Shown here: positions 3,513-64,000 of the stretch, piece by piece
Layout of the letters: each line of letters opens with the position of its first letter
Numbering within the stretch: position 1 is the stretch's first letter
The notes under the pieces: generated by a model
What the model was told of the DNA's origin: nothing
Seen by the model: only the letters and a program-made list of their open reading frames with translations
Database searches by the model: none
Made by a program: the position numbers and the translations under genes
NCBI GenBank assembly: GCA_965206745.1
Contig: OZ242220.1
Coordinates: 1,472,001 to 1,536,000, forward strand
Source of the DNA: Nitrosopumilus sp.
GTDB taxonomy: Archaea; Thermoproteota; Nitrososphaeria; Nitrososphaerales; Nitrosopumilaceae
DNA length: 64,000 bases
Direction: 5' to 3'

Positions 3513-3580
3513 TTTAGTTTGGGAATATCAACTGGCAGGATTTTCAGAAAGGATCAACTGGTACTGTCTTGGTTTTGATC

Positions 3581-5046: not shown

Positions 5047-5054
5047 CAATGCAG

Positions 5055-7054: not shown

Positions 7055-7069
7055 GAGAAATATATTTAA
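7055..7069 (+). promoter_or_regulatory. Probable BRE and TATA box (GAGAAA-TATATTTAA) for the ferredoxin-NADP reductase gene
   Basis: Purine-rich element followed by a TATA-like sequence 26-34 nt upstream of ATG 7095. Confidence 0.5.
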
Positions 7070-7094
7070 CCAAAGTCAGGAAAAAGCTTCTTGT

Positions 7095-8391: not shown

Positions 8392-8559
8392 ATGGCAAAA
8401 CTCAAGTGCAGTGATTACGGGTTTGAGTGTGATTTTATTGTCGAAGGCGAGAGGGATTCAGTCATTGACGACTTTAGAACCCACACTGAAGAGGTGCACG
8501 GAATAGACTATTCCAAGGAAGCAGTCATGCAGTTTCTCCTAAGAAAGCAGGGACTGTAA
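8392..8559 (+). CDS. Small metal-binding protein, DUF1059-like (55 aa)
   Basis: MAKLKCSDYGFECDF...HTEEVHG matches the CxDxGxxC...HxxxxHG pattern. A TTTATA box at 8365-8370 supports ATG 8392 over the track start at 8308. Confidence 0.85.
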   Translation: MAKLKCSDYGFECDFIVEGERDSVIDDFRTHTEEVHGIDYSKEAVMQFLLRKQGL

Positions 8560-8573
8560 CGAAATTACACCTC

Positions 8574-9641: not shown

Positions 9642-9654
9642 ACCACTCCACCTG

Positions 9655-10338: not shown

Positions 10339-10660
10339 TGAAATTTACTGAAATTGCCTGAATTTTAATATTCTTGTGGCAGTGGTTACTTGAAGAATGT
10401 TTTCTGATGGCAGTTTTTTGGGCGTGTCTCTGATCGGCAGAAAGGATCATGGGTTCCTCAAAAGGGAACATTCTCCCTTTCATTGACAAGGCCTTCCAAT
10501 GGGTGGTTTAGGGTATCAGGGGGAATCTTTTGGTGCATCCGCAGTACGTACTTTTTGGGTCGGTGCGATTTGAGGTGGGCCTCTCTGGATTACAGTCAGA
10601 TGATACCATGCTAGAACGGATCCCAAAGATTACAGGGTTGGCCAGTCAGCAAGACAAGGA

Positions 10661-13600
10661 CTAGTTTAACAGGTCTAATATTCTCTGCGCCTTGCCCTGC
10701 TCAATGTCGAGCTCCTCTGCGAGTTTTTCTGACTTTGAGACGCTGGACTTTGGATTTGAATAGTCATAGCTGAATGTCTGGTCAGGTATGGATACCAGCT
10801 TGCTTGCGTCAAATATCATAGTTGCCCTGTCTTGCTCCTGCTGCATCAGATTCTCAAAGTTTGAGTGCATCCTAGTCATCACGTTGACTGCACCGTCTGT
10901 GAATCGCTCCATCTCAGGTGAGGTAACTGAGAACCAGCTGCCGTGATCATTTTGTGTCCAGAGGTATCCCGAATCATCCTCCCAGATGTTGTAGCGCCTG
11001 TCCTGCTGGGTCAGGGTGATGATCTTTGCCGGTCCCTGGTTTGTCTTTTTCTGCACGATATACTGTGTCTTTGATTCAAGCAGAGAGTCGCCTGCAAACT
11101 CTACGCCCTCGTTGATGTACGTTACGGTGCTGCGTCGCTTGGAATCTACTGCAGATATTGCAAGCACGTCTGATTTCAGTGGCGCGTTAATCTTGAAGGA
11201 TATCTCAAAGGAGTGGCATATCGTACTAGAGCCGGGATTGCATGCGCCGCTGGTGACTGTGGCAGTTGTCTTGTTCTCGTCTACTAGCGACTCTTTTTGC
11301 TCGTGAATAATCTCATCTATATCATAGCCGACTGGACTGGTATAGTTCCTGTTTAGCATCAGTATGATGTCAGTTTCTGCATCTGTTGCCGCACCAATCT
11401 CGGGCACTCCAAGGGATAGTACCACATACCTGAATCCGTCAGCTGCATATGCCTTCATGGTGACGTTGTTTGTATCGCCGATTATTGACGATGTCCTTCT
11501 AAAGTCAGTGTGCCAGTTGTCAGTGACATCTAGTGTGCGGCCATTGAATGTGAATCCGTCCCTGACTAGCTGCGATGGGAGCACCTCCCATGACTTGCCA
11601 AAGGTTGGCTTTTTCTGCCAGTCATTTGAGCCGCCGTTTGTGGTTCTACGCAGTGTCAGCTCACCGTCTTGCGCAGACAATTCCCCGGTACCATCCTCAA
11701 ATGACCAGGTAAACTCGAACAATCTTGAGCTCTGACCAGATTCTAGATAACTAGAGTTAAACTGTGCAGAGAATCCACCTGTCTGATTATTTAGGGAAGA
11801 TGCGATGGATTCGGGCAAGCTACCCATATCTTTAATCCTGTATATTGACGTGTCATCTGGTGGACTCTCAGTCGGGTTTATGACTGCCCTACTCAGGTCT
11901 GGAATGTGTTGGTTGGGTCTTATTATATGTGAATACTGCCTAAATTCAGGTACTATGTTTACCTCGTTTACGATAATTTCGATATTTAGCGTAGCATCCT
12001 GATTGAGTGGCTCTGTATCAGTGAGGGTGATTGTGAATCCGACTGTGGTGTTGCCGTGAGTATCATCAGGTGTCCATGTGAATATTCCACTGGTTCTACC
12101 TATCTCTGCATTAGTATCAGTTGGGAATATTATGGCCCAGTCACCATCAACATCATTTGGAGTCAGATCATCATCGCTCAGGGTAAATGTCAGCATATCG
12201 TGTTCATCAACTGTTAGGCCTGGATCAGGAATGCCTCCGATCATGGGATCATGCCCGACGTTTATGATAGGGCCAATTATTAAAAAGTGTATTTCCATAG
12301 TGACTGGAGTAGAAATTATACCATCAGTCACTTGGACTATCCTTGTTATCGATGTACCGTCATGGACGTCACGAGGTGTGAATGTAAATACGCCGGTATC
12401 TCTATCAATGCTTCCCTGATCATTATTGCCATCCTCTAGACTCCATACCAGAGGCTCATCACCATCAGGATGCATAGCGGTGAAGGGTATTATTAGGGGC
12501 ACATCCACAGCGAGCCCTACAGGGAAATCTACAGGGAGACCTACAAAGAGATCTGGTGTGTTTATTACCGGTGGCAGGTTGTCGTTGGTTACCTCTATGG
12601 AACTAGTCTGCATTATGTTAGCATTTGGACCGTTGCCGTCGTCATTGTATGTCCACCTGAACTCGAACCGTTCTGGTGAGAGTGCGTTAGTTGTCGCATT
12701 ATGGGATACGGTTCCTTCAAATGTTCCATCATCAGGGTTTATCCTTATTCCAAGTGGCAGTTCGCCAGATTCGTGGGTATATGTTATGTCAGATGACGGA
12801 TTCTCCACATCATCTGTAATTGTAATTGAGAGCGAGCCAGGTACTGGGTTTCCCTCGACTACTTGCACATTGTATAGTGTGCCAGATAGGGTTGGTTCCT
12901 GGTTTGAAGTGTCTGCATTTACAGTAATTGCGTGAGGTACGCTTGCTCGTTGATTATCAACGTCAGTCAGAGTGAATGTAAACTCGACTGTAGTATCGAC
13001 AAACTGTGAACCGGGAGTCCATGAGAATAGTATGTTTTGTCCGGTGGTTGCATTAAGTGTTGCGCCAGTAGTAGTGGTTGAATTATCTGATAGTCTCCAT
13101 ATTGGCAGAGGATCATTTCTGTCAAGATCATCGCCGGTCACGATAAATGATACGGGACTACCAACAATAATTTCTCTAGGAGCAGTACTTGAAATAGGAT
13201 CTACTGTAGGCGCTCGGTTATTGTTGTTTATTGTCAGTCTGGCATCATATTCTGCTCGTGCTGTTCCAGCATTATCCTCATAGCTCCAGACAAAGTTATA
13301 GATTACCTCGCCTTCTGCATGATTTACTGTATCAAATGGAAGCCTGCCGCCTGCAAATACACCTGACTGTTCATTTAGGGTCCCTGCAACAGGCAAGTCG
13401 CCAGATACGTACCTGAATTCACGTATAATGCCAGGTGGCATTCCGTCAGGATATGTAATTACACTAGACAGGGAAGGAATGATCTGATTCTCTGATCTAG
13501 TAAAGTTGTATGAACCGATTGTAGCAGGGGTTGGCGGTTCACTTGTTGCAGACACAGTAATTGTGTGCGGTTCAGTGCTAGACCCACCATGACCATCACT

Positions 13601-16600
13601 TAGCGTAAATGTAAATACAGTATCACCCATATGGTCTTCCGTAGGAGTCCATGTGAATTCTATGTTTCGTCCGGTGGTTGCATTAAGTGTTGCGCCAGTA
13701 GCGGTTGAAGAATCATCTGATAGGGACCATGTCAAAGGATCTCCATCAGGATCCGTACCGGTCAGAGGGAATGTAACTGAGCTGCCTGCATCAACTTGGG
13801 AAGGAGTATTAGGAATGCCTGCGATTACTGGATTCTGGTTTGAAGTGTCTGCATTTACAGTAATTGCGTGAGGTACGCTTGCTCGTTGATTATCAACGTC
13901 AGTCAGAGTGAATGTAAACTCGACTGTAGTATCGACAAACTGTGAACCGGGAGTCCATGAGAATAGTATGTTTTGTCCGGTGGTTGCATTAAGTGTTGCG
14001 CCAGTAGTAGTGGTTGAATTATCTGATAGTCTCCATATTGGCAGAGGATCATTTCTGTCAAGATCATCGCCGGTCACGATAAATGATACGGGACTACCAA
14101 CAATAATTTCTCTAGGAGCAGTACTTGAAATAGGATCTACTGTAGGCGCTCGGTTATTGTTGTTTATTGTCAGTCTGGCATCATATTCTGCTCGTGCTGT
14201 TCCAGCATTATCCTCATAGCTCCAGACAAAGTTATAGATTACCTCGCCTTCTGCATGATTTACTGTATCAAATGGAAGCCTGCCGCCTGCAAATACACCT
14301 GACTGTTCATTTAGGGTCCCTGCAACAGGCAAGTCGCCAGATACGTACCTGAATTCACGTATAATGCCAGGTGGCATTCCGTCAGGATATGTAATTACAC
14401 TAGACAGGGAAGGAATGATCTGATTCTCTGATCTAGTAAAGTTGTATGAACCGATTGTAGCAGGGGTTGGCGGTTCACTTGCTGCAGACACAATAATTGT
14501 GTGCGGTTCAGTGCTAGACCCACCATGACCATCACTTAGCGTAAATGTAAATTCGTTATCACCTATATGCGCTTCTGCAGGAGTCCATGAGAATTCTATG
14601 TTTGATCCGGTGGTTGCATTAAGTGTTGCACCCAGAGTGTTAGGCGATAGAACCCATGTCAAAGAATTCCTATCAGGATCCATACCGGTCACGACAAATG
14701 TGACTGGGTTGCCTACAACAGCTGTGGGATCGGCATCCGCTGGGATGGTTATTTCTGGGTCTCTGACAGGTATATCAAATGATATATCCCTAGTGACTGG
14801 AGTAGTAATTATACCATCAGTCAATTGGACTGTCCTCGTTACCATTTGACCTTCCTGGGAGCTAAGAGGTGTAAATTCATATTCGCCGGTAAGCCTATTA
14901 ATTACTGCGCCCTCATTATTGCCATCAAGTATACTCCATGCAAAGTTAGCAGCATCACCGGGATCAGGATCCATACCCTCAAAATCTATCGGTTCTATTG
15001 CTTCACCTACATTGGGCATATCATCGTAATCTAGTGGGTCATCTATTGTCGGGGATCGGTTGACGTCGGTTACAGTTATGGTACCAGACTGCACCCCTGC
15101 TGATCCAATGCCGTCTGCAAATATCCAATTAAAGTTAAAGGTTACAGAACCTTGTGCAGCGGTTACATCATCAAATGGAATGGTGCCATCAAATTCGCCG
15201 GTGTCAGAATCCAAAAGATTTATGATGCCCTGAGGCAGGTTGCCGCCTGTGACTTCATACCCGGAGATAGTTTGTGCCGGAGTCAGAACAGAATCTATAA
15301 CTTCACTATACAAAGAGGGAAGAGTGTCACCTTCTGCTACTATCTCATCATAGGTATTAAATGAAGGCAGTTCCTCGACTGTCAGGGTGTAGGTACCTGA
15401 ATCAGGACCTGCAGTAGTGCTTGTTGCAGTGTAGTCTATTGCAAAGTCCTGTGATGTCGAACCGTCATTTATGGCATCAAGGTCTAGATTTCCAGTTATG
15501 GTACATGCGGCATTAAGTGTGAGACTGCCAGGCAGTAGGGAGTCAGGGGCACAGGTTATTTCGCCATCACCTGTAACTCCAAGTGGGATGTCTACTGTCT
15601 CACCTTCTGTGCGAGTTGAGGTACCGTTCGGTGCAGTAATTGTTGAAACGTCATCTACCAGTATGGTGCCAGGCTGGGATCCAGATGTAGATTCACCAAC
15701 ACTGTATGTCCATTCAAATGGGAATGGTCGTGGTGAGTTTCCGGCAGTTGTAGCATCATGGGGTACGGTTCCTGCAAATGTTCCATCATCACGGTTTAGC
15801 GTTATGCCAGATGGCAGTGCTTCAGTAAGTACGATGTCATATGTTATGCCAGGTACCGACTCTACACCAACTATTACACTTGCAAGCGAGGTGGGTATTT
15901 GCTGTCCCTCATCGACATCAACAGTGTATGGGCCAGATGTGTCAGGCAGTTCACTTGCTGCTGCAGACACAATAATTGTGTGCGGTTCAGTGCTAGATCC
16001 ACCACGACCATCACTTAGCGTAAATGTAAATTCGTTAGGACCTATATGCGCTTCTGCAGGAGTCCATGTGAATTCTATGCTTGATCCGGTGGTTGCATTA
16101 AGTACTGCACCGGTGGCAGTTGAAGAATCATCTGATAGGGACCATGTCAAAGTATTGCCATCAGGATCCTCACCGGTCACTACAAATGTGACTGGGTCGC
16201 CTACAACAGCTGTGGTATCGGCATCCGGTGGGATGGTTATGATTGGGTCTCTGACAGGTATAGTAAATTCTATTATCCTAGTGGCTGGAGTAGTAATTAT
16301 ACCATCAGTCACTTGGACTGTCCTATCTGCAAATCCACCTTCATGGAAATGAGGAGGCGTATATGTAAAGAATCCGGTTCTCGCATCAATTTCTGCACCC
16401 TGATCATTGCCGCGTTCTAGACTCCATACCAGTTCCTCATCACCATCAAGATGCGTAGCGGTGAACTGTATTTCTACGAGGTCACCTACATTGGGTGTAG
16501 GATCGAAAGTGTCTGGGGTATTTATTGTCGGTGCCAGGTTGACGTTGATTACCTCTATGGAACTAGTCTGAGTTATGTTAGCATTTGGACCGTTGCCGTC

Positions 16601-19600
16601 GTCATTGTATGTCCACCTGAACTCGAACCGTTCTGGTGAGAGTGCGTTAGTTGTCGCATTATGGGATACGGTTCCTTCAAATGTTCCATCATCAGGGTTT
16701 AGCCTTATTCCAAGTGGCAGTTCGCCAGATTCGTGGGTATATCTTATTATGGGGAATAGCGTATCGTCGGGATCATTAATTGCACCTGAGAGGGAACGTA
16801 GTACTGAGTCTCCCTCGCGGACTTGCTCACTGTACGGTGTGTCAGATAGGGACGGTGGTGCGTTTGTCTCTGCCACATCAAATGCGATGGTATAGGTGGC
16901 TACCTTCTCTCCGGGATCAGTCAGGGTGATTATAAAGTGGACTGTGCTGCTGCCGTGGGATTCACCTGGTGTCCACGTGAATATGCCATCTTGATCAATC
17001 ACTGCATTGTTGGTTGCATTTGCCTGTACAGTCCACTCCGGCTCATCATCACCTGTATCAGTGTCAGGATCCATGCCCTCAAAGTCAACTGATACCAATT
17101 CTCCCTCATCAGGTGTATCATCAACAGCACCTGAAGGACCGTCTATCACAGGTGCTCTGTTATAGTTGGTTACAGTGATTGTGCCAGCCCGGACAGGTTC
17201 TGGTGTATTGACGCCGTCATCATATGTCCATTGGATGGTGTAGACTCTGGTAGGGTCTGCATAGGTTGCAGTGTCAAATGGGAATGATGCATCAAATGCG
17301 CCAGTTGTCTCATCAAAGGAGCCGCTGACGACAGCAGGTAGTGGAGGGTCGCTTGATTCTAACGTGTATACGATGGTGCCAGATGACGATTCCACAGGGT
17401 CACTTACCGCACTTGAGAGTGGCGGAATTCTGCCGCCTTCAGATACTCCGGCATTATATTCAGATAGGTCTGGTATCTCGTCTATTGTTGGTGTGAGTTC
17501 CGTCTCAGATACGGTAAATTCAATCTCTTCAGTGGCTCTTGCGCCTATAGGATCAGTGAGGGTGATGTTAAATGAGACAGTGTCTCCATCGCCATACTGA
17601 CCGCCTGGAATCCACAAAAAGTCACCGGTGGCAGGATTGATAATTGCGCCGTCATTGTTTGGAGATATGCCCCATATTGGTGCAGCCTCGCCTGTAGTGT
17701 CATCAGTATCAGGATCCATACCCTCAAAGTCATATGATACTGCTTGGAATTGGGCAGGTGTATTGTTGATACCGTTCGGAGGTGTGATTACAGGCTCTCG
17801 GTTGTCGTTGTTTACTGTCAGTATGGCAAACATTTGAGGCGGTGATGGGTTGGTGTCATCTGTATACGTCCATGTAATGTTATAGTTTACAAAGCCTGGA
17901 TCAGAGTCTGCAGTGTCAAATGGGAACGTGTCTGAAAAGTCACCGGTTGCACTATCAATGGTGATACCAGGCAGTGGAGGGTCACTTGATACAAATGTAT
18001 AACTGATGGTACCGTCTGGAGAATCTTCGGCAGGGTCGCTGACTACGATGGAGAGTGACGGTACATCCTGTCCTTCAAGGATTGACTGTGAGTATTGGAC
18101 AATTCGGGGCGGATCACTTTCTGGCGTGTTTGGAGTGTCAGTTATGACAAATGGGACAGTCCTTGTGACCTGCTCATCTGCAGCATCAGTTAAGGTGAAT
18201 ATAACATCTACTGTGCCGGCGTGGGACTCGCCTGGAATCCACAGGAATGTGCCGTTTTCTGGATGAATCGTTGCATCGACAGTAGCATCAGCAGAGGATA
18301 CGCTCCACCTTGGCAGAGGATCGTTTGTGTCCTCATCAGAGCCGCTGGCAATAAATGATATTATTTCAAACTCAGAGTATGTCCTGGGGCCCGGAATCAG
18401 GTCAATTGTAGGTGCTCGGTTCTCGTTCTCTACAGTCAGGATGCCGTGCTGTACAGGAGAGGTTACAGAGTTGTATGTAAGGGTCCACTCAAACTCGTAG
18501 GTTGCAGGATCCTCCAAGGCAGATACCGTATCGTATGGAATGACATTTCTAAATGCGCCGGTGTTAGTATTCAGGAGATCTTTGAGGGATTCAGGCAGGG
18601 TGCCTTCTCCGATGTCGTAGACTAGTGTGGCGCCTGGTGGAATTGTATCGGGGTCAACTGCATCAGACAGTGAAGGAATCACGCTATTCTCTGCTACTCT
18701 TTCTGTGTAGGAGGTAAATGTCGGTTCGACACTTTGAGGCGGCTCGGTTCTCTCCTGCACGTCAACTGTGATGATTCGGTCATCCTTGTCCCCTGCAGGA
18801 TCAGTGAGGGTGAGCTTGAATGAGGCCGTGGTACTGGCATGAGTGTCATCAGGGGTCCACGTGAATAGACCGCTTGTCCTGCCAATCTCTGCACCGTCAT
18901 CATTTGGAGATATGCTCCATGTTGGGGCAGCCTCGCCTGTAGCAGAATCAGTATCGGGATCATCGCCTGTCATGGTAAATTGCAGGGTATCTCCAGGACT
19001 AGGTGAGACAAACGAGGGTGTTGCACCTATCACGGGCTCTCGGTTGTCGTTGTTTACTCGCAACGAGCCGAATTGTTCCTCTGGTACTGCACCACTGCCG
19101 TCTGTATACATCCATGTTATCTCATATCGTATAAAGCCAGGATCAGAGTCTGTGGTGTTAAATGGGAATGATCCGTCAAAGTCACCGGTGTTCTCATCAA
19201 AGTCGACGTCATCAGGCAGGTCCGGGCTGATGTCTAACAATTCATAACGGATGGCACCGTCTGGCGGAACCTCTACGGGATCTCGGACCAGTTCTGAGAG
19301 ACTGGGAATTGGACTGCCTTCCAATACTCCCCTCACGTAACGGAATATGGCAGGTTCCTCATTTACGTCTGGCGTGTCATCAACATTAGTTATGGTAAAG
19401 TCAAGCGGTACATCGTCTTTGTCACCTACAGGATCAGTGAGGGTGACGTTAAATGAGACTGTGTCTCCCTCGTCATACTGGTCACCCACAATCCACGTGA
19501 ATGCCCCACTGGTGGAATTGATGTATGCACCGTCATCATTTGGAGATATGCTCCATGTTGGGGGATCATCACCTGTATCAGTATCTTCATCCATACCCTC

Positions 19601-22600
19601 AAAGTCAAATGATACTGTTTGGAGTTCTGTAGGGTTTTCGTTGAAGCCGGTTCGAGTTGTAATTACAGGTGCCCGGTTGTCGTTGTTTACTGTCAGTATG
19701 GCAAACTGTTCATCTGATGTACCAGTGCCGTCTGTATACGTCCATGTAATGTTATAGGTTACAAAGCCCGGATCAGAGTTTACAGTGTCAAATGGGAACG
19801 TGGCTGAAAAGTCACCGGTTGCCCCAATGGCGACAGGCAGTGGAGGGTCACTTGATACAAATGTATAACTGATGGCACCGACTGTCCCATCCTCGGCAGG
19901 GTCGCTGACTGCGATGGAGAGTGACGGGACATCCTGTCCTTCAAGTACAGTCTGTGAGTATGAGACAATTCGGGGCGGATCGTCACCTGACGTGTTTGGA
20001 GTGTCAATTATGTTAAATATGACAGTCTCTGTGTCCAGCTCACCTGCAGCATCAGTCAAGTTAAATGTAAACAGGATTGTGCTGCCGCCGCGAGACTCAT
20101 CTGGAATCCACAGGAATGCCCCATTCTCCAGATGAATCTCTGCATCAGTGGAGACGGTGGCATTGTCCGATACACTCCACCTTGGCAGAGGATCGTTTGT
20201 GTCCTCATCAAAGCCTCGCACGGTAAATGATATTATTTCAAACTCAGAGTATGTCCTGGGGCCCGGAATCGGATCAACTGTTGGCAGTCTGTTGTTGTTC
20301 TCTACAGTTATGGTACTGTACTGCATCGGCGATGTTCCGGTGCCGTCCTCAAATGTCCACTCAATCTCGTAGGTTACAGAACCCTCCAGGGCAGATACCG
20401 TATCAAATGGGAACGTGGCTGAAAAGTCACCGGTTGCCGTATCAAAGGATCCTCTGATGTCATCAGGCAGGTTGTGTGATGTGATATTATATGTGGATAC
20501 AAGGTCTGCCTCTGCTTCCTCAGGGTTGGTGACTGCATCAGATAGTGAAGGGATTGGCGCATCCTCCTGTATCCTTTCTGTATAGGAGGCAAATGTCGGC
20601 ACATTGTTTGGATCTACTGTAAACGTGTGGATTGCAGTGGCAGGGATACCTTCCTCATCAGTTATGCTGAATGTGAATTCGACTCCAGTACCGCCATGCA
20701 CATCACGTGGAGTCCACGAGAATACACCACTCTGAGAAATTGTTGCATCTGTATTGGCATCAGAGTCATTAGAGGATACGCTCCATGTTGGCGGGTCGTC
20801 ATTGGTGTCATCATCCCCGCCTAGCAGGGCAACTGGTACATTTTGACCGACAAAAATCAGTTCAGGTGTACCATCTGGAACCTGGATGGTTGGGAGCTGG
20901 TTGAGGTTCGTTACGTTTAGTGTACCAGGCTGATTCGGTGATGTTGTTCCAGAGCCGTCAGTGAAGGTCCACGCAAACGTAAAGAATTGGAATTCTTGCT
21001 CAAATGATACGGTATCAAATGGAATGACAGGACTAAACGCGCCAGTGTTTTCATTCAGAGTAACTGCAACCATACTCAGATTGCCAATTCCATCTACGAT
21101 GGCATATCTGGGAGGGGTCTCTGAGGATTCATCAAGGTTGTTGACGAAATCAGAGAGGGGAGGAACGGCATCACCTTCTGGCACTGTCTCGGCATACATA
21201 TCAAATGGGGATGTCACAGCATTGACTGTCAGGGTGTAGGTACCTGAAGCAGTATCTACAGTGTTTGTTGCATCGTATTCTATTGTAAATTGCCGCGATA
21301 ATTCTCCGTCAGGTACGACATTATCACTTATAGTACCAGTTATGGCACAGTTCATCTCATCAAATATGAGATCGTCAGGCAGGTTCCTGGGGTCGGTGAT
21401 GGTACAGGTTACGCCGCCTGGACCCGTAGCTCCAAGTGGGATGTCTACTGTCTCACCTTCTGTGCGAGTTGAGGTACCGTTCGGTGCAGTAATTGTTGAA
21501 ACGTCATCTACCAGTATGGTGCCAGGCTGGGATCCAGATGTAGATTCACCAACACTGTATGTCCATTCAAATGGGAATGGTCGTGGTGAGTTTCCGGCAG
21601 TTGTGGCATCATGGGGTACGGTTCCTGCAAATGTTCCATCATCACGGTTTAGCGTTATGCCAGATGGCAGTGCTTCAGTAAGTACGATGTCATATGTTAT
21701 GCCAGGTACCGACTCTACACCAACTATTACACTTGCAAGCGAGGTGGGTATTTGCTGTCCCTCATCGACATCAACAGTGTATGGGCCAGATGTGTCAGGC
21801 AGTTCACTTGCTGCTGCAGACACAATAATTGTGTGCGGTTCAGTGCTAGATCCACCACGACCATCACTTAGCGTAAATGTAAATTCGTTAGGACCTATAT
21901 GCGCTTCTGCAGGAGTCCATGTGAATTCTATGCTTGATCCGGTGGTTGCATTAAGTACTGCACCGGTGGCAGTTGAAGAATCATCTGATAGGGACCATGT
22001 CAAAGTATTGCCATCAGGATCCTCACCGGTCACTACAAATGTGACTGGGTCGCCTACAACAGCTGTGGTATCGGCATCCGGTGGGATGGTTATGATTGGG
22101 TCTCTGACAGGTATAGTAAATTCTATTATCCTAGTGGCTGGAGTAGTAATTATACCATCAGTCACTTGGACTGTCCTATCTGCAAATCCACCTTCATGGA
22201 AATGAGGAGGCGTATATGTAAAGAATCCGGTTCTCGCATCAATTTCTGCACCCTGATCATTGCCGCGTTCTAGACTCCATACCAGTTCCTCATCACCATC
22301 AAGATGCGTAGCGGTGAACTGTATTTCTACGAGGTCACCTACATTGGGTGTAGGATCGAAAGTGTCTGGGGTATTTATTGTCGGTGCCAGGTTGACGTTG
22401 ATTACCTCTATGGAACTAGTCTGAGTTATGTTAGCATTTGGACCGTTGCCGTCGTCATTGTATGTCCACCTGAACTCGAACCGTTCTGGTGAGAGTGCGT
22501 TAGTTGTCGCATTATGGGATACGGTTCCTTCAAATGTTCCATCATCAGGGTTTAGCCTTATTCCAAGTGGCAGTTCGCCAGATTCGTGGGTATATCTTAT

Positions 22601-49600: not shown

Positions 49601-52600
49601 CACGGGCTCTCGGTTGTCGTTGTTTACTCGCAACGAGCCGAATTGTTCCTCTGGTACTGCACCACTGCCGTCTGTATACATCCATGTTATCTCATATCGT
49701 ATAAAGCCAGGATCAGAGTCTGTGGTGTTAAATGGGAATGATCCGTCAAAGTCACCGGTGTTCTCATCAAAGTCGACGTCATCAGGCAGGTCCGGGCTGA
49801 TGTCTAACAATTCATAACGGATGGCACCGTCTGGCGGAACCTCTACGGGATCTCGGACCAGTTCTGAGAGACTGGGAATTGGACTGCCTTCCAATACTCC
49901 CCTCACGTAACGGAATATGGCAGGTTCCTCATTTACGTCTGGCGTGTCATCAACATTAGTTATGGTAAAGTCAAGCGGTACATCGTCTTTGTCACCTACA
50001 GGATCAGTGAGGGTGACGTTAAATGAGACTGTGTCTCCCTCGTCATACTGGTCACCCACAATCCACGTGAATGCCCCACTGGTGGAATTGATGTATGCAC
50101 CGTCATCATTTGGAGATATGCTCCATGTTGGGGGATCATCACCTGTATCAGTATCTTCATCCATACCCTCAAAGTCAAATGATACTGTTTGGAGTTCTGT
50201 AGGGTTTTCGTTGAAGCCGGTTCGAGTTGTAATTACAGGTGCCCGGTTGTCGTTGTTTACTGTCAGTATGGCAAACTGTTCATCTGATGTACCAGTGCCG
50301 TCTGTATACGTCCATGTAATGTTATAGGTTACAAAGCCCGGATCAGAGTTTACAGTGTCAAATGGGAACGTGGCTGAAAAGTCACCGGTTGCCCCAATGG
50401 CGACAGGCAGTGGAGGGTCACTTGATACAAATGTATAACTGATGGCACCGACTGTCCCATCCTCGGCAGGGTCGCTGACTGCGATGGAGAGTGACGGGAC
50501 ATCCTGTCCTTCAAGTACAGTCTGTGAGTATGAGACAATTCGGGGCGGATCGTCACCTGACGTGTTTGGAGTGTCAATTATGTTAAATATGACAGTCTCT
50601 GTGTCCAGCTCACCTGCAGCATCAGTCAAGTTAAATGTAAACAGGATTGTGCTGCCGCCGCGAGACTCATCTGGAATCCACAGGAATGCCCCATTCTCCA
50701 GATGAATCTCTGCATCAGTGGAGACGGTGGCATTGTCCGATACACTCCACCTTGGCAGAGGATCGTTTGTGTCCTCATCAAAGCCTCGCACGGTAAATGA
50801 TATTATTTCAAACTCAGAGTATGTCCTGGGGCCCGGAATCGGATCAACTGTTGGCAGTCTGTTGTTGTTCTCTACAGTTATGGTACTGTACTGCATCGGC
50901 GATGTTCCGGTGCCGTCCTCAAATGTCCACTCAATCTCGTAGGTTACAGAACCCTCCAGGGCAGATACCGTATCAAATGGGAACGTGGCTGAAAAGTCAC
51001 CGGTTGCCGTATCAAAGGATCCTCTGATGTCATCAGGCAGGTTGTGTGATGTGATATTATATGTGGATACAAGGTCTGCCTCTGCTTCCTCAGGGTTGGT
51101 GACTGCATCAGATAGTGAAGGGATTGGCGCATCCTCCTGTATCCTTTCTGTATAGGAGGCAAATGTCGGCACATTGTTTGGATCTACTGTAAACGTGTGG
51201 ATTGCAGTGGCAGGGATACCTTCCTCATCAGTTATGCTGAATGTGAATTCGACTCCAGTACCGCCATGCACATCACGTGGAGTCCACGAGAATACACCAC
51301 TCTGAGAAATTGTTGCATCTGTATTGGCATCAGAGTCATTAGAGGATACGCTCCATGTTGGCGGGTCGTCATTGGTGTCATCATCCCCGCCTAGCAGGGC
51401 AACTGGTACATTTTGACCGACAAAAATCAGTTCAGGTGTACCATCTGGAACCTGGATGGTTGGGAGCTGGTTGAGGTTCGTTACGTTTAGTGTACCAGGC
51501 TGATTCGGTGATGTTGTTCCAGAGCCGTCAGTGAAGGTCCACGCAAACGTAAAGAATTGGAATTCTTGCTCAAATGATACGGTATCAAATGGAATGACAG
51601 GACTAAACGCGCCAGTGTTTTCATTCAGAGTAACTGCAACCATACTCAGATTGCCAATTCCATCTACGATGGCATATCTGGGAGGGGTCTCTGAGGATTC
51701 ATCAAGGTTGTTGACGAAATCAGAGAGGGGAGGAACGGCATCACCTTCTGGCACTGTCTCGGCATACATATCAAATGGGGATGTCACAGCATTGACTGTC
51801 AGGGTGTAGGTACCTGAAGCAGTATCTACAGTGTTTGTTGCATCGTATTCTATTGTAAATTGCCGCGATAATTCTCCGTCAGGTACGACATTATCACTTA
51901 TAGTACCAGTTATGGTACATGCCTCATCATTAAATCTGAGATCGTCAGGCAGGTTCCTGGGGTCGGTGATGGTACAGGTTACGCCACCTGGACCCGTAGC
52001 TCCAAGTGGGATGTCTACTGTCTCACCTTCTGTGCGAGTTGAGGTACCGTTCGGTGCAGTAATTGTTGAAACGTCATCTACCAGTATGGTGCCAGGCTGG
52101 GATCCAGATGTAGATTCACCAACACTGTATGTCCATTCAAATGGGAATGGTCGTGGTGAGTTTCCGGCAGTTGTAGCATCATGGGGTACGGTTCCTGCAA
52201 ATGTTCCATCATCACGGTTTAGCGTTATGCCAGATGGCAGTGCTTCAGTAAGTACGATGTCATATGTTATGCCAGGTACCGACTCTACACCAACTATTAC
52301 ACTTGCAAGCGAGGTGGGTATTTGCTGTCCCTCATCGACATCAACAGTGTATGGGCCAGATGTGTCAGGCAGTTCACTTGCTGCTGCAGACACAATAATT
52401 GTGTGCGGTTCAGTGCTAGATCCACCACGACCATCACTTAGCGTAAATGTAAATTCGTTAGGACCTATATGCGCTTCTGCAGGAGTCCATGTGAATTCTA
52501 TGCTTGATCCGGTGGTTGCATTAAGTACTGCACCGGTGGCAGTTGAAGAATCATCTGATAGGGACCATGTCAAAGTATTGCCATCAGGATCCTCACCGGT

Positions 52601-55600
52601 CACTACAAATGTGACTGGGTCGCCTACAACAGCTGTGGTATCGGCATCCGGTGGGATGGTTATGATTGGGTCTCTGACAGGTATAGTAAATTCTATTATC
52701 CTAGTGGCTGGAGTAGTAATTATACCATCAGTCACTTGGACTGTCCTATCTGCAAATCCACCTTCATGGAAATGAGGAGGCGTATATGTAAAGAATCCGG
52801 TTCTCGCATCAATTTCTGCACCCTGATCATTGCCGCGTTCTAGACTCCATACCAGTTCCTCATCACCATCAAGATGCGTAGCGGTGAACTGTATTTCTAC
52901 GAGGTCACCTACATTGGGTGTAGGATCGAAAGTGTCTGGGGTATTTATTGTCGGTGCCAGGTTGACGTTGATTACCTCTATGGAACTAGTCTGAGTTATG
53001 TTAGCATTTGGACCGTTGCCGTCGTCATTGTATGTCCACCTGAACTCGAACCGTTCTGGTGAGAGTGCGTTAGTTGTCGCATTATGGGATACGGTTCCTT
53101 CAAATGTTCCATCATCAGGGTTTAGCCTTATTCCAAGTGGCAGTTCGCCAGATTCGTGGGTATATCTTATTATGGGGAATAGCGTATCGTCGGGATCATT
53201 AATTGCACCTGAGAGGGAACGTAGTACTGAGTCTCCCTCGCGGACTTGCTCACTGTACGGTGTGTCAGATAGGGACGGTGGTGCGTTTGTCTCTGCCACA
53301 TCAAATGCGATGGTATAGGTGGCTACCTTCTCTCCGGGATCAGTCAGGGTGATTATAAAGTGGACTGTGCTGCTGCCGTGGGATTCACCTGGTGTCCACG
53401 TGAATATGCCATCTTGATCAATCACTGCATTGTTGGTTGCATTTGCCTGTACAGTCCACTCCGGCTCATCATCACCTGTATCAGTGTCAGGATCCATGCC
53501 CTCAAAGTCAACTGATACCAATTCTCCCTCATCAGGTGTATCATCAACAGCACCTGAAGGACCGTCTATCACAGGTGCTCTGTTATAGTTGGTTACAGTG
53601 ATTGTGCCAGCCCGGACAGGTTCTGGTGTATTGACGCCGTCATCATATGTCCATTGGATGGTGTAGACTCTGGTAGGGTCTGCATAGGTTGCAGTGTCAA
53701 ATGGGAATGATGCATCAAATGCGCCAGTTGTCTCATCAAAGGAGCCGCTGACGACAGCAGGTAGTGGAGGGTCGCTTGATTCTAACGTGTATACGGGGGT
53801 GCCAGTTGTCGAATCCTCTACAGGGTCACTTACCGCACTTGAGAGTGGCGGAATTCTGCCGCCTTCAGATACTCCGGCATTATATTCAGATAGTACAGGT
53901 GGCTCATTGTCTGTGGTGGGTGCCGTCTCAGATACGGTAAATTCAATCTCTTCAGTGGCTCTTGCGCCTATAGGATCAGTGAGGGTGATGTTAAATGAGA
54001 CAGTGTCTCCATCGCCATACTGACCGCCTGGAATCCACAAAAAGTCACCGGTGGCAGGATTGATAATTGCGCCGTCATTGTTTGGAGATATGCCCCATAT
54101 TGGTGCAGCCTCGCCTGTAGTGTCATCAGTATCAGGATCCATACCCTCAAAGTCATATGATACTGCTTGGAATTGGGCAGGTGTATTGTTGATACCGTTC
54201 GGAGGTGTGATTACAGGCTCTCGGTTGTCGTTGTTTACTGTCAGTATGGCAAACATTTGAGGCGGTGATGGGTTGGTGTCATCTGTATACGTCCATGTAA
54301 TGTTATAGTTTACAAAGCCTGGATCAGAGTCTGCAGTGTCAAATGGGAACGTGTCTGAAAAGTCACCGGTTGCACTATCAATGGTGATACCAGGCAGTGG
54401 AGGGTCACTTGATACAAATGTATAACTGATGGTACCGTCTGGAGAATCTTCGGCAGGGTCGCTGACTACGATGGAGAGTGACGGTACATCCTGTCCTTCA
54501 AGGATTGACTGTGAGTATTGGACAATTCGGGGCGGATCACTTTCTGGCGTGTTTGGAGTGTCAGTTATGACAAATGGGACAGTCCTTGTGACCTGCTCAT
54601 CTGCAGCATCAGTTAAGGTGAATATAACATCTACTGTGCCGGCGTGGGACTCGCCTGGAATCCACAGGAATGTGCCGTTTTCTGGATGAATCGTTGCATC
54701 GACAGTAGCATCAGCAGAGGATACGCTCCACCTTGGCAGAGGATCGTTTGTGTCCTCATCAGAGCCGCTGGCAATAAATGATATTATTTCAAACTCAGAG
54801 TATGTCCTGGGGCCCGGAATCAGGTCAATTGTAGGTGCTCGGTTCTCGTTCTCTACAGTCAGGATGCCGTGCTGTACAGGAGAGGTTACAAAGTCGTATG
54901 TAAGGGTCCACTCAAACTCGTAGGTTGCAGGATCCTCCAGGGCAGATACCGTATCGTATGGAATGGTATCTGTAAATGCGCCGGTGTTAGTATTCAGGAG
55001 ATCTTTGAGGGATTCAGGCAGGGTGCCTTCTCCGATGTCGTAGACTAGTGTGGCGCCTGGTGGAATTGTATCGGGGTCAACTGCATCAGACAGTGAAGGA
55101 ATCACGCTATTCTCTGCTACTCTTTCTGTGTAGGAGGTAAATGTCGGTTCAGCACTTTGAGGCGGCTCGGTTCTCTCCTGCACGTCAACTGTGATGATTC
55201 GGTCATCCTTGTCCCCTGCAGGATCAGTGAGGGTGAGCTTGAATGAGGCCGTGGTACTGGCATGAGTGTCATCAGGGGTCCACGTGAATAGACCGCTTGT
55301 CCTGCCAATCTCTGCACCGTCATCATTTGGAGATATGCTCCATGTTGGGGCAGCCTCGCCTGTAGCAGAATCAGTATCGGGATCATCGCCTGTCATGGTA
55401 AATTGCAGGGTATCTCCAGGACTAGGTGAGACAAACGAGGGTGTTGCACCTATCACGGGCTCTCGGTTGTCGTTGTTTACTCGCAACGAGCCGAATTGTT
55501 CCTCTGGTACTGCACCACTGCCGTCTGTATACATCCATGTTATCTCATATCGTATAAAGCCAGGATCAGAGTCTGTGGTGTTAAATGGGAATGATCCGTC

Positions 55601-58600
55601 AAAGTCACCGGTGTTCTCATCAAAGTCGACGTCATCAGGCAGGGACGGGCTGATGTCTAACAATTCATAACGGATGTCACCGTCTGGCGGAATCTCTACG
55701 GGATCTCGGACCAGTTCTGAGAGACTGGGAATTGGACTGCCTTCCAATACTCCCCTCACGTAACGGAATATGGCAGGTTCCTCATTTACGTCTGGCGTGT
55801 CATCAACATTAGTTATGGTAAAGTCAAGCGGTACATCGTCTTTGTCACCTACAGGATCAGTGAGGGTGACGTTAAATGAGACTGTGTCTCCCTCGTCATA
55901 CTGGTCACCCACAATCCACGTGAATGCCCCACTGGTGGAATTGATGTATGCACCGTCATCATTTGGAGATATGCTCCATGTTGGGGGATCATCACCTGTA
56001 TCAGTATCTTCATCCATACCCTCAAAGTCAAATGATACTGTTTGGAGTTCTGTAGGGTTTTCGTTGAAGCCGGTTCGAGTTGTAATTACAGGTGCCCGGT
56101 TGTCGTTGTTTACTGTCAGTATGGCAAACTGTTCATCTGATGTACCAGTGCCGTCTGTATACGTCCATGTAATGTTATAGGTTACAAAGCCCGGATCAGA
56201 GTTTACAGTGTCAAATGGGAACGTGGCTGAAAAGTCACCGGTTGCCCCAATGGCGACAGGCAGTGGAGGGTCACTTGATACAAATGTATAACTGATGGTA
56301 CCGACTGTCCCATCCTCGGCAGGGTCGCTGACTGCGATGGAGAGTGACGGGACATCCTGTCCTTCAAGTACAGTCTGTGAGTATGAGACAATTCGGGGCG
56401 GATCGTCACCTGACGTGTTTGGAGTGTCAATTATGTTAAATATGACAGTCTCTGTGTCCAGCTCACCTGCAGCATCAGTCAAGTTAAATGTAAACAGGAT
56501 TGTGCTGCCGCCGCGAGACTCATCTGGAATCCACAGGAATGCCCCATTCTCCAGATGAATCTCTGCATCAGTGGAGACGGTGGCATTGTCCGATACACTC
56601 CACCTTGGCAGAGGATCGTTTGTGTCCTCATCAAAGCCTCGCACGGTAAATGATATTATTTCAAACTCAGAGTATGTCCTGGGGCCCGGAATCGGATCAA
56701 CTGTTGGCAGTCTGTTGTTGTTCTCTACAGTTATGGTACTGTACTGCATCGGCGATGTTCCGGTGCCGTCCTCAAATGTCCACTCAATCTCGTAGGTTAC
56801 AGAACCCTCCAGGGCAGATACCGTATCAAATGGGAACGTGGCTGAAAAGTCACCGGTTGCCGTATCAAAGGATCCTCTGATGTCATCAGGCAGGTTGTGT
56901 GATGTGATATTATATGTGGATACAAGGTCTGCCTCTGCTTCCTCAGGGTTGGTGACTGCATCAGATAGTGAAGGGATTGGCGCATCCTCCTGTATCCTTT
57001 CTGTATAGGAGGTAAATGTCGGTGATGGGCTTGCCCCTACATCAAATGCGATATCCTTCATGGCTTTTCCTGCACGGCCATCAGTCAGCGTTACGGTAAA
57101 TATGACACGGGTATTGGCTTGGTCTTGGGTTGGAGTAAATGTGAATAATCCGTCCTGATCAATATCTGCACCATCAGGAGCGCCATCTAGATTAAGAGGC
57201 GATATGCCCCATCCTAGGTCATCATCGTCAGGATCCTCACCAGTCAGGGTGAATTGTACGATATCTCCAGGATTAGGTGTAGAGTCAAAAGGCGGATCGT
57301 TAGTTATCATAGGGGGTCGGTTGGTATTGGTTACATTTAATATACCAATCTGGTTATCGGGGTTCCCAGTGCCGTCCTCGAATGTCCAGACAAACACAAA
57401 GAGTTGAAAATCAAGTGAATTGGCTACTGCACTATGGGAGACATTACCACTAAAGGTACCATTGTTTCTATTCAGAGAAGAGACTATGACATCTGGGAGT
57501 CCAGATATGATTGTATAGATGGATGTGTCGTCTTCTGGAATTTCATCAGGATTATCAACTACACCAGACAGTGGAGGAATTCTATCCTCATTGCTACCTT
57601 CTGTGGCCTGTCCTGTATATTGCCCAATTCTTGGTCGCGTGTTTACATCCTCCACCTCAAATGTAATGATCTCATTGTCTACCTTCTGTCCGGGATCAGT
57701 GAGGGTGAATGTGAATCTGACTGTGGTGTCGCCGTGAGTGTCATCTGGAGTCCACGTGAAGAGGCCATTTTGATCAATGACTGCATCAGTAGTTGCATTT
57801 GCCAGTACAGTCCATTCCGGCGGGTCATCACCTGAAACAGTAGCAGTACGAGTATCAGGATCAGAGCCAGTCAGCGTAAATGATGTCATTTGCTGCTCTG
57901 GAGGCGTTCTGTCGATACCAGAGGGGTCTTCTATCATTGGGCGCCGGTTCTCATTGGTTACCGTGATTGTGCCAGTCTCAGGGTCTTGTGGCGGTGTATT
58001 GACGCCGTCACTATACCTCCATTGGATGGTATAGACTCGGGTCGGCTCTGCATAGGTTGTAGTGTTAAATGGGAATGGTTCGCCAAATTCGCCGGTTGTA
58101 TCATCAAAGGAGTCCATGACGGCATCAGGCAGGGCAGGGACGCTTGATTCTAACGTGTATGCGATGGTGCCAGATGCCGAATCCTCTACAGGGTCACTTA
58201 CCGCACTTGAGAGTGGCGGAATCCTGTCGCCTTCTGATACTCCGGCATTATAATCAAATAGTATGGGTTCCTCGTCTGGTATTGTGAGTGCCGTCTCAGT
58301 TACGGTAAATTCAATCTCTTCAGTGTCTGCTGCACCTGCAGGATCAGTGAGGGTGACGTTAAATGAGACTGTGTCTCCGCCGTGCTCATCGCCTGGAATC
58401 CACAGGAATACACCAGATTCAGGATTGATAATTGCGCCGTCATCATTTGGAGATATGCTCCATGTTGGGGCAGCCTCGCCTGTAGCAGGATCAGTATCAG
58501 GATCTATACCCTCAAAGTCAAATGATATGGATTCAAATTCTGCAAGCGTATCATCAATGGTTGGAGGTGTAATTACAGGCTCTCGGTTGAAGTTGTTTAC

Positions 58601-61600
58601 TGTAATTGTGCCGGATTCTTCAGATGGTGATGCACCACTGCCGTCTGTATATGTCCATGTAATGTCATATTGTACAAAGCCAGGATCAGAGCCTGTGGTG
58701 TTGAATGGGAACGTGGCTGAAAAGTCACCGGTGTTCTCATCAAAGGATTCTGCAATGTCTTCAGGCAGGGTGGTGCCGCTTGGTACCAATGCATAACTGA
58801 TGGCACCAGCTGTCGAATCTTCGGCAGGGTCGATGACTGCGATGGAAAGCGATGGGATATCCTGTCCCTCAAGGATTGACTGTGAGTATGGGGCAAAGTC
58901 TGGAGCATCGTCTCCTGGCGTGTTTGGAGTGTCAGTTATGGTAAATGTGACAGGCTCTGTGGCATCTTCACCTGCAGCATCAGTCAAGGTGAATATGAAA
59001 TCCACTGTGCCGGCATGAGATTCACCTGGAATCCACAGGAATGTGCCGTTTTCTGGATGAATCGTTGCATCTGCATTGGCAGCAGTATTAGTAGAGGATA
59101 CGCTCCATCTTGGCAGAGGATCGTTTGTGTCCTCATCAGAGCCGCTCACATTAAATGATATTATTTCAAACTCAGAGTATGTCGTAGGGACCATAATCGG
59201 ATCAATTGTTGGCAGTCGGTTGTCGTTCTCTACAGTTATGGTACCATACTGTATCTCTGATCGTCCGGTACCGTCTGTAAATCTCCAAAAGAACTCGTAC
59301 GTTATGGAATCCTCCAGGGCAGATACTGCATCATGTGTGAACATGTTTGTAAATTCGCCGGTTGTCGGAACAAAGGAGCTGAGAATCTCCTCAGGCAGGT
59401 TGCTTGATGCGATGGCATAGTTCAGTACGTTCTCTGCTAAAATTCCATCAGGGTTTGTAAATACGCTAGACAGGGAAGGAATGGGGACATTCTCTGGTAT
59501 CGTTTCTGCGTACGTGGGCGCCTGCGTGTTTGTCTCTGCCACCTCAAATGTGATGATCTCATTGTCTACTTTCTGTCCGGGATCAGTGAGGGTGAATGTA
59601 AATCGGACTGTGCTGCCACCGTGAGATTCACTGGGAGTCCACGTGAAATCACCAGTCTCTTCATCAATCATTGCATCCGTAGTTGCATTTGCCAATACAG
59701 TCCATTCCGGCGGATCATCACCTGTAGCAGTATCAAGATCCATACCCTCAAAGTCAAATGATAATAGTTCGTGCTCTGAAGGTGTTCTGTCGATACCAGA
59801 GGGTTCTTCTATCATTGGGCGTCGGTTGTCGTTAGTTACTGTGATTATGCCAGTCTGAGTTTGTGGCGTGTATCCTGGACTGCCATCATTATATATCCAT
59901 TTGACGGTATAGTTTAGGGCAGGATTCGCATAGTTTGTAGTGTCAAATGGGAATGATTCATCAAATGCTCCGGTTCTCTGATTCAGAGAGTTTATGATGG
60001 ATGTAGGCAAGGTCGTACCATCTGATTCGATTGTGTATAGGGTGGCATTATCTGGCGGACTTTCGGCAGGATTGTTGACTGCAATTGAGAGGGGCGGAAT
60101 ACTTTTGTCTTCTAGTACTTTGACAAAATACTCAGACAGTTCAGGTGGCTCATTTATGTCAGGTGTAATTTCTGTCCTAGATACACGAAATTCAATCTCT
60201 TCAGTGGCTGGTCTACCTGCAGGATCAGTGAGGACGATGGTAAATGGGACTGTGGTGTCACCATGTCCATCACGTGGGGTCCACGTGAATGTTCCATTAA
60301 CAGGATTGATATATCCACCATCATCGTTGGCTACCACGCTCCACAATGGGGCAGGCTCAGCTATACCATCAGTATCTTCATCCTCACCTATCAGTGTAAA
60401 TGAAAATGTTTGGTATTCTGCAGCATTAAAGTCGATACCCTCTGGAATTGTAATTACAGGGTCGCGGTTGACGTTCTTTACTATCAGTTGGGCATCTAGT
60501 TCGTGTTCATCAAATTGTTCGTGATACGACCAAATAAAGTTTAGTGTTACAGGATCTCGGAAAGTAGTCACATAGGGATATGGGAAATAGTCAATTTGAT
60601 CTAGTGATTCGTCTGGATCAAATATGCCAGTTTTAGTGTTCACAGCATTTTTAATGTTTGAAGGAATTTCAGAAGGTATAACGTATTGGATATCCCGATC
60701 TACTGGATCTACTACAGGATCCCTAACTACGCTGGAAAAGTTTGGAAGGGGTTGCCTCTCAAATACTGTATGAAAGTATGGGATAAATTCAGCTAGCTCA
60801 TTTACATCTGTAGGGTCAGTATCATCTATGGTAAATGGGACAGTCTCTATGACTGATTCACCTGCAGCATCAGTCAAGTTGAATCTAACATCTATTGTGT
60901 GGCCGCCATGCTCATTACCTGGAATCCACCTGAATGTTCCATTCTCCAGATGAATCGATACATCTGCATCAGCGGCAGGGTCAGTAGAGGATACGCTCCA
61001 GGTTGGCTGAGGATCGTTTCCATCAGGATCAGAACCGGTCAGAGTAAATGATATTATTTCAAACTCAGAGTATGTCCTAAGGCCTGGAATCAGATCGATT
61101 GTCGGTGGTTGGTTGTTGTTCGCTACAGTCAGGGTACCAAACTGTCTCTCTGATGTTTCAGAGCCGACTGTGATTCTCCAAAAGAACTCGTAGGTTGTAG
61201 AATTCTCCAGGGCAGATACTGCATCAAATGGGAACTTGTTTGCAAAGTTACCAGTTGTCGTATCAAAGGAGCCCAGGATCTCCTCAGGCAGGTTGCCGTC
61301 TTCGATGTTATAGCTCAATGCGACATCTGGGGGAATTTCATCAAGGTTGCTAACTACATTGGAGAGTGAAGGAATTGTTGCATTCTCAAATACCGTTTCT
61401 GCGTAGGAAGTAAATGGTGGTAGGAGTGTAGATCCCACCTCAAATCTGAGAACCCTCTCGTCTGTTCCTCCACGGGCATCAGTTAGGACAATGTGAGCCG
61501 CGACGTTGGTATTGGCTTGGTCCCGAGTGGGGGCAAATCTGAAGTCTCCAGTGTCCCGATCAATTCTTGCACCCTGAGGAATGTCAGGTGATATGCTCCA

Positions 61601-64000: not shown

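Follow-up and report, generated by a model that had tools for sequence, protein, structure and literature searches.

A complete 56-kb cadherin-like repeat gene in a Nitrosopumilus genome, and a C-terminal module that its product shares with diverse exported proteins

The window analysed here is a stretch of 64,000 nucleotides (nt) from a Nitrosopumilus sp. genome (GenBank assembly GCA_965206745.1, contig OZ242220.1; G000:C1:1472001-1536000), most of which is taken up by one giant gene whose product is built from immunoglobulin (Ig)/cadherin-like domains of two types, A and B. The genome is 1.86 Mb in two contigs and 99.6% complete, and an archaeal amoA gene was detected in it well above the Pfam cut-off, as expected from the archaeal host assumed in a preliminary description of the window. 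That description had reported a stop-free frame of 53,340 bp, and the listing of open reading frames (ORFs) contains it on the minus strand at 10661..64000 (17,779 codons, with the 5' end open at the window edge). An alternative start inside the window, a GTG at 63814, gives a product of 17,717 amino acids (aa). In the whole-genome sequence the frame extends 2,847 nt beyond the window edge to a TTG, so that the product described as at least 17,779 aa and open-ended is indeed of that order but is in fact complete at 18,728 aa. The TTG is the earliest start codon, at window-equivalent 66847 (genome 1538847), three codons past an upstream in-frame stop at window-equivalent 66857-66859; the total stop-free frame is 18,731 codons. 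With its TAG stop the complete gene measures 56,187 nt. The product has a mass of 2,013 kDa (2.01 MDa), contains 13% Thr and ranks among the largest proteins yet found in archaea. The G+C content across the window is 45-50%, at which, judging from the frequency of stop codons, a stop-free frame of this length cannot have arisen by chance. The parts of the gene and its repeats are as follows.

10661..64000, minus strand: in-window part of the gene, aa 950-18728 and the TAG stop; the first 2,847 nt lie beyond the edge
57023..64000, minus strand: single-copy N-proximal array of diverged A-B pairs, gene nt 2848-9825; its 31-mers occur about once in the genome
56414..57031, minus strand: example A-B pair (aa 3273-3478), first row of alignment A1 and the pair modelled with AlphaFold2
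35397..57022, minus strand: near-identical super-repeat block 1, gene nt 9826-31451, in 5,853-nt units of 19 domains each; segments present 5-7 times at ≥95% identity
29483..35396, minus strand: diverged unit, gene nt 31452-37365, sharing 75-82% identity with the other units
29474..29987, no strand assigned: tandem 21-nt unit, 24.5 copies, encoding a 7-residue Thr/Pro/Gly/Asp/Ile repeat
15377..29482, minus strand: near-identical super-repeat block 2, gene nt 37366-51471, holding the second copy of a 10,742-nt stretch
11639..15376, minus strand: C-proximal, mostly single-copy A/B domains, aa 17158-18403, with one pair of ~900-nt repeats at 95% identity
10664..11638, minus strand: conserved C-terminal module, aa 18404-18728, in which two helices come after beta-sandwiches; one Cys pair is invariant

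A TATA-like box is located 20-29 nt 5' of the TTG (window-equivalent ~66867-66876), so near to it that a leaderless archaeal transcript would fit. The protein sequence after the TTG begins MNIALVVGFCLVLSLATIPVFAQS, and no other stretch close to either terminus is strongly hydrophobic. The C-terminus has no transmembrane segment: nothing in the last 500 residues exceeds the hydrophobicity threshold, and the last stretch that does ends at aa 18195. The extension past position 64,000 that the preliminary description had advised therefore produced a start codon and the predicted signal-peptide-like segment, but no special tip domain: where a specificity-bearing N-terminus had been expected there is only a further Ig-like domain with a Cys pair, and the first 200 aa include an A domain.

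For each of the two domain types a profile was seeded with a single domain and refined by iteration over the whole protein sequence, with overlaps resolved. The profiles assign 85 type-A and 84 type-B domains (169 in all), which mostly alternate, as had been claimed, and the consensus motifs quoted for each type were recovered in alignment A1, which comprises 30 non-redundant A-B pairs (first row aa 3273-3478) and has a mean column identity of 42%. After this assignment seven internal gaps of 92-264 aa are left, counted as other modules of ~100 aa; six of the seven are ~96-aa Ig modules with a Cys pair, each super-repeat having one, and the 21-nt tandem repeat sits in the loop of just one of these six. 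The domain total is then ~176 (85 A, 84 B and 7 others), of which ~167 are inside the window (160 A/B domains starting at aa 951 or later, plus the 7 other modules); the earlier estimate was roughly 170. One repeat unit (aa 3276-5226) holds 18 A/B domains and one 96-aa Cys-pair module, which accounts for the ~19 domains per 1,951-aa unit first reported.

The Ig/cadherin-like assignment was examined with Pfam and by structure prediction, and both bear it out. The Pfam scan covered aa 1-5950, 10001-13000 and 16501-18728, and three families exceed their cut-offs in every part: He_PIG (PF05345; 137.1 bits with six stretches in aa 16501-18728 and 125.2 bits in aa 951-5950, cut-off 24), Big_9 (PF17963; 142.7 bits with eight stretches and also 130.6 bits, cut-off 23.6) and Cadherin_5 (PF17892; 64.6 bits with three stretches and also 37.1 bits, cut-off 26.5). 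The example A-B pair was modelled with a pLDDT of 91.9 as tandem beta-sandwiches of ~100-110 aa, the arrangement that defines the extracellular cadherin (EC) fold. The best Foldseek match of this model is the ligand-binding region of SraP of Staphylococcus aureus (4m00; E 1.1e-8, TMq 0.60, 19% identity over the match), and many EC pairs of cadherins and protocadherins, including P-cadherin and protocadherin-15, match at E 1e-8 to 1e-7, as does the extender of an RTX adhesin from Aeromonas (6xi1; E 1.1e-7, TMq 0.54). The two-domain TM-scores to the cadherin and protocadherin EC pairs are low (TMq 0.35-0.45), which indicates that the inter-domain geometry differs from that of cadherins. Protocadherin-15 was also matched across the junction when an A-B profile was searched against PDB sequences (E 3.5e-5).

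The calcium motifs of cadherins are known as XEX, DXD, DXNDN-like and XDX. A domains carry a Y(4-5)E motif in 84 of 85 cases and end with N.N[RQL].P in 72 of 85, and B domains contain DxD in 82 of 84 and [TS]D near the end in 79 of 84. B domains end with [ND].[ND]..P in only 15 of 84 cases, and the typical B-to-A linkers are rich in Pro and Thr. As judged from these motifs, a cadherin-type calcium motif set is located at the A-to-B junctions and is mostly absent from the B-to-A junctions. The NDNxP/DxD linkers that the preliminary description regarded as stiffening are found at one kind of junction, whereas a uniformly stiff rod is not borne out; we infer instead a chain of predicted calcium-stiffened A-B pairs on short, possibly glycosylated linkers.

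Comparison of the DNA with itself gave repeat offsets of 5,853 nt, corresponding exactly to the 1,951-aa unit that had been claimed, at 97.9-99.6% identity, and one block of 10,742 nt is repeated at 99.9% identity with an offset of 16,656 nt. In total 37,530 of the 56,187 nt (two thirds of the gene) are repeated within it at ≥95% identity, with 5-7 copies per position, and the two repeat blocks flank the one diverged unit. Four plus-strand ORFs of 314 aa lie antisense to the giant gene (21261-22205, 37917-38861, 45978-46922 and 51831-52775); their equal length recurs because the repeat recurs, and they are most likely not genes. In a gapless comparison of unit 1 with unit 2, 83 of 111 differences fall inside one 300-nt patch (window ~53720-54020, gene nt ~12826-13125), which looks like a replaced or converted segment and not like even divergence. 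Two of the five gapless unit comparisons were unusable owing to indels.

As near-identical units could be mis-assembled, the copy number was tested by depth in public run data, using the word (k-mer) depth of contigs compared with window 51170-64000. In run X1 the single-copy contigs (window 57123-63406) have a flat depth of 491-494, and the exact repeat contigs (window 51170-57022) have a depth of 2,110-2,198, or 4.3-4.5 times the single-copy depth; the repeat 31-mers matched by these contigs occur exactly five times in the assembly. A contig joint going back 5853 nt, from one unit to another, was seen in run X1 and again in run X3 of a separate study. Run X8, a putative RNA run, contributed short contigs of depth 5-15 over the repeat and a few over the single-copy part, and no conclusion rests on them. 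Together the depth ratio and the joint in two studies show that the multi-copy structure is real; the number of units is correct to about one, or varies in the population.

The C-terminal module comprises the last 325 aa of the protein. It was modelled with a pLDDT of 84.8 as beta-sandwiches followed by two amphipathic helices at the very end of the protein, and in its alignment one Cys pair is invariant and D/N/E/W/R residues are conserved. The sole Pfam candidate was DUF2436 (21.3 bits, under its cut-off of 25); NCBIfam gave no match, a sequence profile search of the PDB gave none at E up to 1, and Foldseek against the PDB gave nothing at E ≤0.001. Two candidate identities were rejected: a V-type Ig domain (1xt5) had the best VIA-align Z of 8.6, covering residues 7-185 only and within the range of common arrangements, and ESM Atlas clusters reached a best score of 0.84, below lead level, in clusters that are unnamed. 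By these searches the module is new, in that it matches no known family.

It is not confined to the giant protein. The module is present at 74-79% identity in five other frames of the same genome, and is matched by 613 representatives of a library of 1.84 billion proteins. Among the best 150 of these 613 matches it stops no more than 40 aa short of the C-terminus in 130, and a hydrophobic segment is present at the N-terminal end in 82 and at the C-terminal end in one. In 50 shorter proteins bearing the module, 53 different Pfam families were found ahead of it, and the cargo includes periplasmic solute-binding proteins, plastocyanin-like cupredoxins, beta-helix proteins, fn3 domains and lectins. 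A profile search detected it in 28 of the 74 genomes examined from its own family and in none of 176 from 15 other families of the order; by single-protein search it is in 37 of 151 genomes of the genus, this genome counted. The presence of the same C-terminal piece on many unrelated exported proteins suggests a sorting or anchoring domain, and it is somewhat more probable than otherwise that the module acts as an envelope anchor or sorting module. Archaeosortase-sorted proteins form classes such as PGF-CTERM and PEF-CTERM; the giant protein does not carry an archaeosortase-type C-terminal tripartite signal with its transmembrane helix.

A/B domains also occur elsewhere in the genome. Each of five paralogues (1,257-5,232 codons) combines a signal-like start with 7-34 A/B domains and the C-terminal module, and four further frames of 511-2,807 codons contain A/B domains.

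372615-381551, plus strand: paralogue
1566304-1582002, minus strand: paralogue
618619-630573, plus strand: paralogue
109249-114144, plus strand: paralogue
1256645-1260418, minus strand: paralogue
1037690-1046110, minus strand: further A/B-domain frame
995116-1000158, minus strand: further A/B-domain frame
1000961-1002493, minus strand: further A/B-domain frame
765260-769840, minus strand: further A/B-domain frame

All of these are on the contig of the giant gene (G000:C1). The N-termini of the paralogues are similar in style to that of the giant, and in several of them the hydrophobic segment ends in small residues (VFA, AFA). In three of the four further frames the N-terminus shares 40-43% identity with that of the giant, and none of the four was found with the C-terminal module as query. 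When the 210 ORFs lying up to 6 kb from the six paralogue loci were compared all against all, no flanking gene proved to be shared. Twelve A/B-domain frames make up 6.75% of the 1.86-Mb genome, the giant gene alone 3.0%.

Long frames with the module were found in four other genomes: G161 (11,434 codons), G357 (8,617), G164 (7,683) and G204 (25,697). The last belongs to another genus of the family and is 1.64 Mb in one contig, with 65% G+C over the 80 kb fetched around the frame. The frame itself carries the same C-terminal module at E 6e-25:

G204:C1:1045961-1123051, minus strand: 25,697-codon stop-free frame (loci L032-L035)

It has a signal-like start ~88 codons in and matches to Big_5, CopC and SWM_repeat, with no A/B domains and no near-identical long repeats. 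Since this frame is longer, the giant gene described here is not the largest of its kind. Searched against the 150 other genomes of the genus, the N-terminal 200 aa of the giant matched nothing at E 1e-5, and among proteins of 362-2000 aa only six homologues of the A-B pair were found, from a few long contigs; by this sampling the A/B domain type seems confined to this lineage.

The neighbouring genes are of other kinds. Biotin carboxylase and carboxyltransferase genes (acetyl/propionyl-CoA carboxylase subunits) lie at window 438-3479 on the minus strand; in ammonia-oxidising archaea (AOA) such genes are usually assigned to the acetyl/propionyl-CoA carboxylase of the 3-hydroxypropionate/4-hydroxybutyrate cycle. 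Two minus-strand ORFs, at 5055-6173 (372 aa) and 9655-10338 (227 aa), have no Pfam match, and the latter is directly downstream of the giant gene on the same strand, with a 47-nt overlap with a glutamyl-tRNA reductase ORF. Two tRNA genes are situated ~360-600 nt 5' of the giant gene start (locus L001, 5209-5283 on the minus strand and 5380-5453 on the plus strand).

Taken as a whole, the sequence evidence shows that the gene is real and complete, and suggests with moderate confidence that its very acidic product is a Sec-exported surface protein of a Nitrosopumilaceae ammonia-oxidising archaeon which forms a fibre, is anchored and acts as a tether. The A and B domains would form two-domain units, each pair stiffened by sea-water calcium at its A-to-B junction, and the Pro/Thr-rich B-to-A linkers would string the pairs together like beads. 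Cadherin structures measure ~4-4.5 nm per domain, and with 176 domains the extended reach would be up to ~0.7-0.8 micrometre. The C-terminal module would hold the protein at the cell envelope (S-layer or pseudo-periplasm), and with such an anchor the N-terminus would be the distal tip, matching the polarity of the S-layer protein of N. maritimus (NmSLP), whose N-terminus points outwards and whose C-terminus points towards the membrane according to the accessible text of PMC11153153. The role of the fibre would be that of an adhesin, tether or spacer directed at host matrix, particles or other cells, and the near-identical 5.85-kb units would stem from recent unequal recombination, allowing quick change in length. 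A secreted, envelope-attached, calcium-stiffened cadherin-like tether or adhesin is put forward as the best-supported, and on balance probable, reading of the giant protein.

Several observations weigh against this tether. Neither Pfam nor the A/B profiles recognise a binding domain at the N-terminal end, and the signal-peptide-like segment there lacks a positively charged n-region. No known sorting motif or transmembrane segment was found in the C-terminal module, its fold matches are those of a generic beta-sandwich, and the anchor role is read solely from the position of the module and the variety of its cargo. With most B-to-A junctions free of the calcium-type motif, the chain may be flexible and not a rod. 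The depth of the repeat contigs falls below the fivefold of the assembly, so the array could have one unit fewer or come from a mixed population, and X1 may be the source data of the assembly, in which case it is independent for depth but not for sequence. Finally, the changes between unit 1 and unit 2 (26 synonymous, 85 non-synonymous) have a ratio of ~1, about neutral and dominated by the one 300-nt patch, which would mean that single units may be under little constraint.

The first of the alternatives reverses the polarity, with the N-terminal segment an uncleaved signal anchor in the membrane and the C-terminal module a distal ligand-binding head, as in the bacterial RTX adhesins. It would account for the N-terminal segment being the only strongly hydrophobic stretch near the protein ends and for the module being more strongly conserved among the paralogues than any other part, which is what one would expect of a shared binding head, and the invariant Cys pair and conserved D/N/E/W/R residues would suit such a head. 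The same module, however, also follows solute-binding, cupredoxin and beta-helix proteins, which need retention rather than a ligand head; the small residues that end the hydrophobic segment in several paralogues resemble those of cleaved signal peptides, and the orientation of NmSLP (PMC11153153, accessible text) is the opposite one. This arrangement is considered unlikely.

Slightly more unlikely still is a polyanionic coat, an acidic and probably glycosylated brush that traps ammonium or other cations or shields the cell, extending the charge-trap role proposed for the AOA S-layer to a halomucin-like purpose. The composition invites such a view, as D+E make up 16.9% of residues against 3.3% for K+R, the computed pI of 4.05 is the floor of the program and there are 177 N-x-S/T sequons in the protein; but the acidic residues are concentrated in the cadherin-type junction motifs, whose usual role is to bind calcium and so confer stiffness, adhesion modules are the nearest folds, and a single chain of 0.7 micrometre is an uneconomical way to add charge.

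A similarly low probability is given to an inflated assembly, in which the gene exists but its count of 5.85-kb units is off by at least one or varies in the population, and 18,728 aa is not the true, or not the only, length. Two thirds of the gene are close repeats, including the 10,742 nt at 99.9%, and the depth of the exact repeat contigs is short of the assembled fivefold, as this explanation would require; the ratio is nevertheless near the assembled value against a flat single-copy depth, the unit-to-unit joint recurs in two studies, and relatives with whole chromosomes carry module frames of 11,434 and 25,697 codons, of which the longer lacks near-identical repeats. Very improbable is a gene in decay or silent, a recently expanded array no longer expressed or useful. 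The near-neutral ratio between recent copies would suit it, but the 56 kb are free of stops and frameshifts, nothing is damaged in the start, the signal-peptide-like segment or the C-terminal module, the fold-defining residues are conserved across the 30 pairs of A1, and the gene and its family take up 3.0% and 6.75% of the 1.86-Mb genome.

Beyond the tether itself, a broader and more tentative proposal is that the module may be an undescribed, Nitrosopumilaceae-specific anchoring or sorting domain for diverse extracytoplasmic proteins (solute-binding proteins, cupredoxins, lectins and proteases), and in some lineages for cadherin-like fibres of 11,000-25,000 aa with recombination-tuned length; it would then be a counterpart of the S-layer homology (SLH) domain, of the C-terminal domains of the type IX secretion system (T9SS) or of PGF-CTERM. 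To our knowledge the AOA envelope has no known lipid or sortase anchor for secreted proteins, and the shared module offers a handle on how these archaea keep such proteins at the envelope. The DNA share of the family and the 25,697-codon relative suggest that cell-surface reach and attachment are a major and unstudied side of the biology of some Nitrosopumilaceae. The near-identical 5.85-kb units also lend themselves well to testing how long-read metagenome assemblies render repeat copy number.

Neither this protein nor its C-terminal module nor such giants in AOA were found described in the literature covered, which comprised search listings and main-text passages. The accessible text of 10.1101/2023.11.21.568195 puts archaeal proteins above 10,000 aa at few, mostly from Asgard archaea, and that of PMC11573180 counts few archaeal proteins above 5,000 aa in UniProt; within these texts neither source reports a Nitrosopumilaceae protein above 10,000 aa, and the survey of PMC11573180 mentions no protein above 5,000 aa from an ammonia-oxidising archaeon. 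Genomes of sponge AOA are described as expanded in S-layer-like, Ig, cadherin and HYR domain proteins, with no giant protein mentioned in the accessible parts of 10.1101/527234 and PMC7848895. Halomucin and the giants of Asgard archaea and Omnitrophota also exceed 9,000-10,000 aa, with a different domain content.

Among known systems, the giant adhesins of the RTX/type I secretion system (T1SS) kind in Gram-negative bacteria, such as the ice-binding adhesin of Marinomonas primoryensis, LapA and SiiE, are likewise megadalton surface proteins with ~50-120 tandem Ig-like domains of ~100 aa, often near-identical and calcium-stiffened; here the calcium stiffening is predicted only. The M. primoryensis adhesin has ~120 copies of a 104-residue calcium-dependent Ig-like repeat (PMC4083281, accessible text). 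The protein described here differs in having an N-terminal Sec-type signal-like segment and not a C-terminal T1SS signal, an archaeal host without an outer membrane, two alternating domain types where those have one, and a different C-terminal module. RTX nonapeptides are absent, with no GGxGxD motif in the 18,728 aa and no RTX family in the Pfam-scanned parts.

Cadherin-23 and protocadherin-15 also consist of tandem EC-like beta-sandwiches with junction motifs of the E, DxD and N.N..P types. Long cadherins have 11-27 EC domains; the archaeal chain has 176 domains, carries the motif set only at every second junction, and lacks a transmembrane and cytoplasmic part. SraP, the closest structural match to the A-B pair, shows cadherin-like modules in a bacterial surface adhesin, and is a serine-rich, sortase-anchored Gram-positive protein. 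Giant1-5 of the symbiont Apilactobacillus kunkeei, extracellular proteins of 3,000-8,000 aa that take up ~6% of a 1.5-Mb genome (PMC12863079, accessible text), are similar in genome share, but belong to a bacterium, are of other domain types, and the largest is less than half the size of this protein.

The comparison closest in host is NmSLP, an acidic, glycosylated Ig-like array (PMC11153153, accessible text), which shares the array and an AOA host with the giant but differs in having ten domains in 1,734 aa and in forming a lattice. No chain named NmSLP was among the PDB profile matches of the A-B pair or of the C-terminal module, the presence of that chain in the PDB copy searched being unconfirmed. 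Set beside these systems, the protein would be a giant Ig/cadherin-repeat surface adhesin, of a kind already known, from hosts in which it was not expected; what sets it apart is its Sec-type signal and a C-terminal module that is novel and shared with other proteins.

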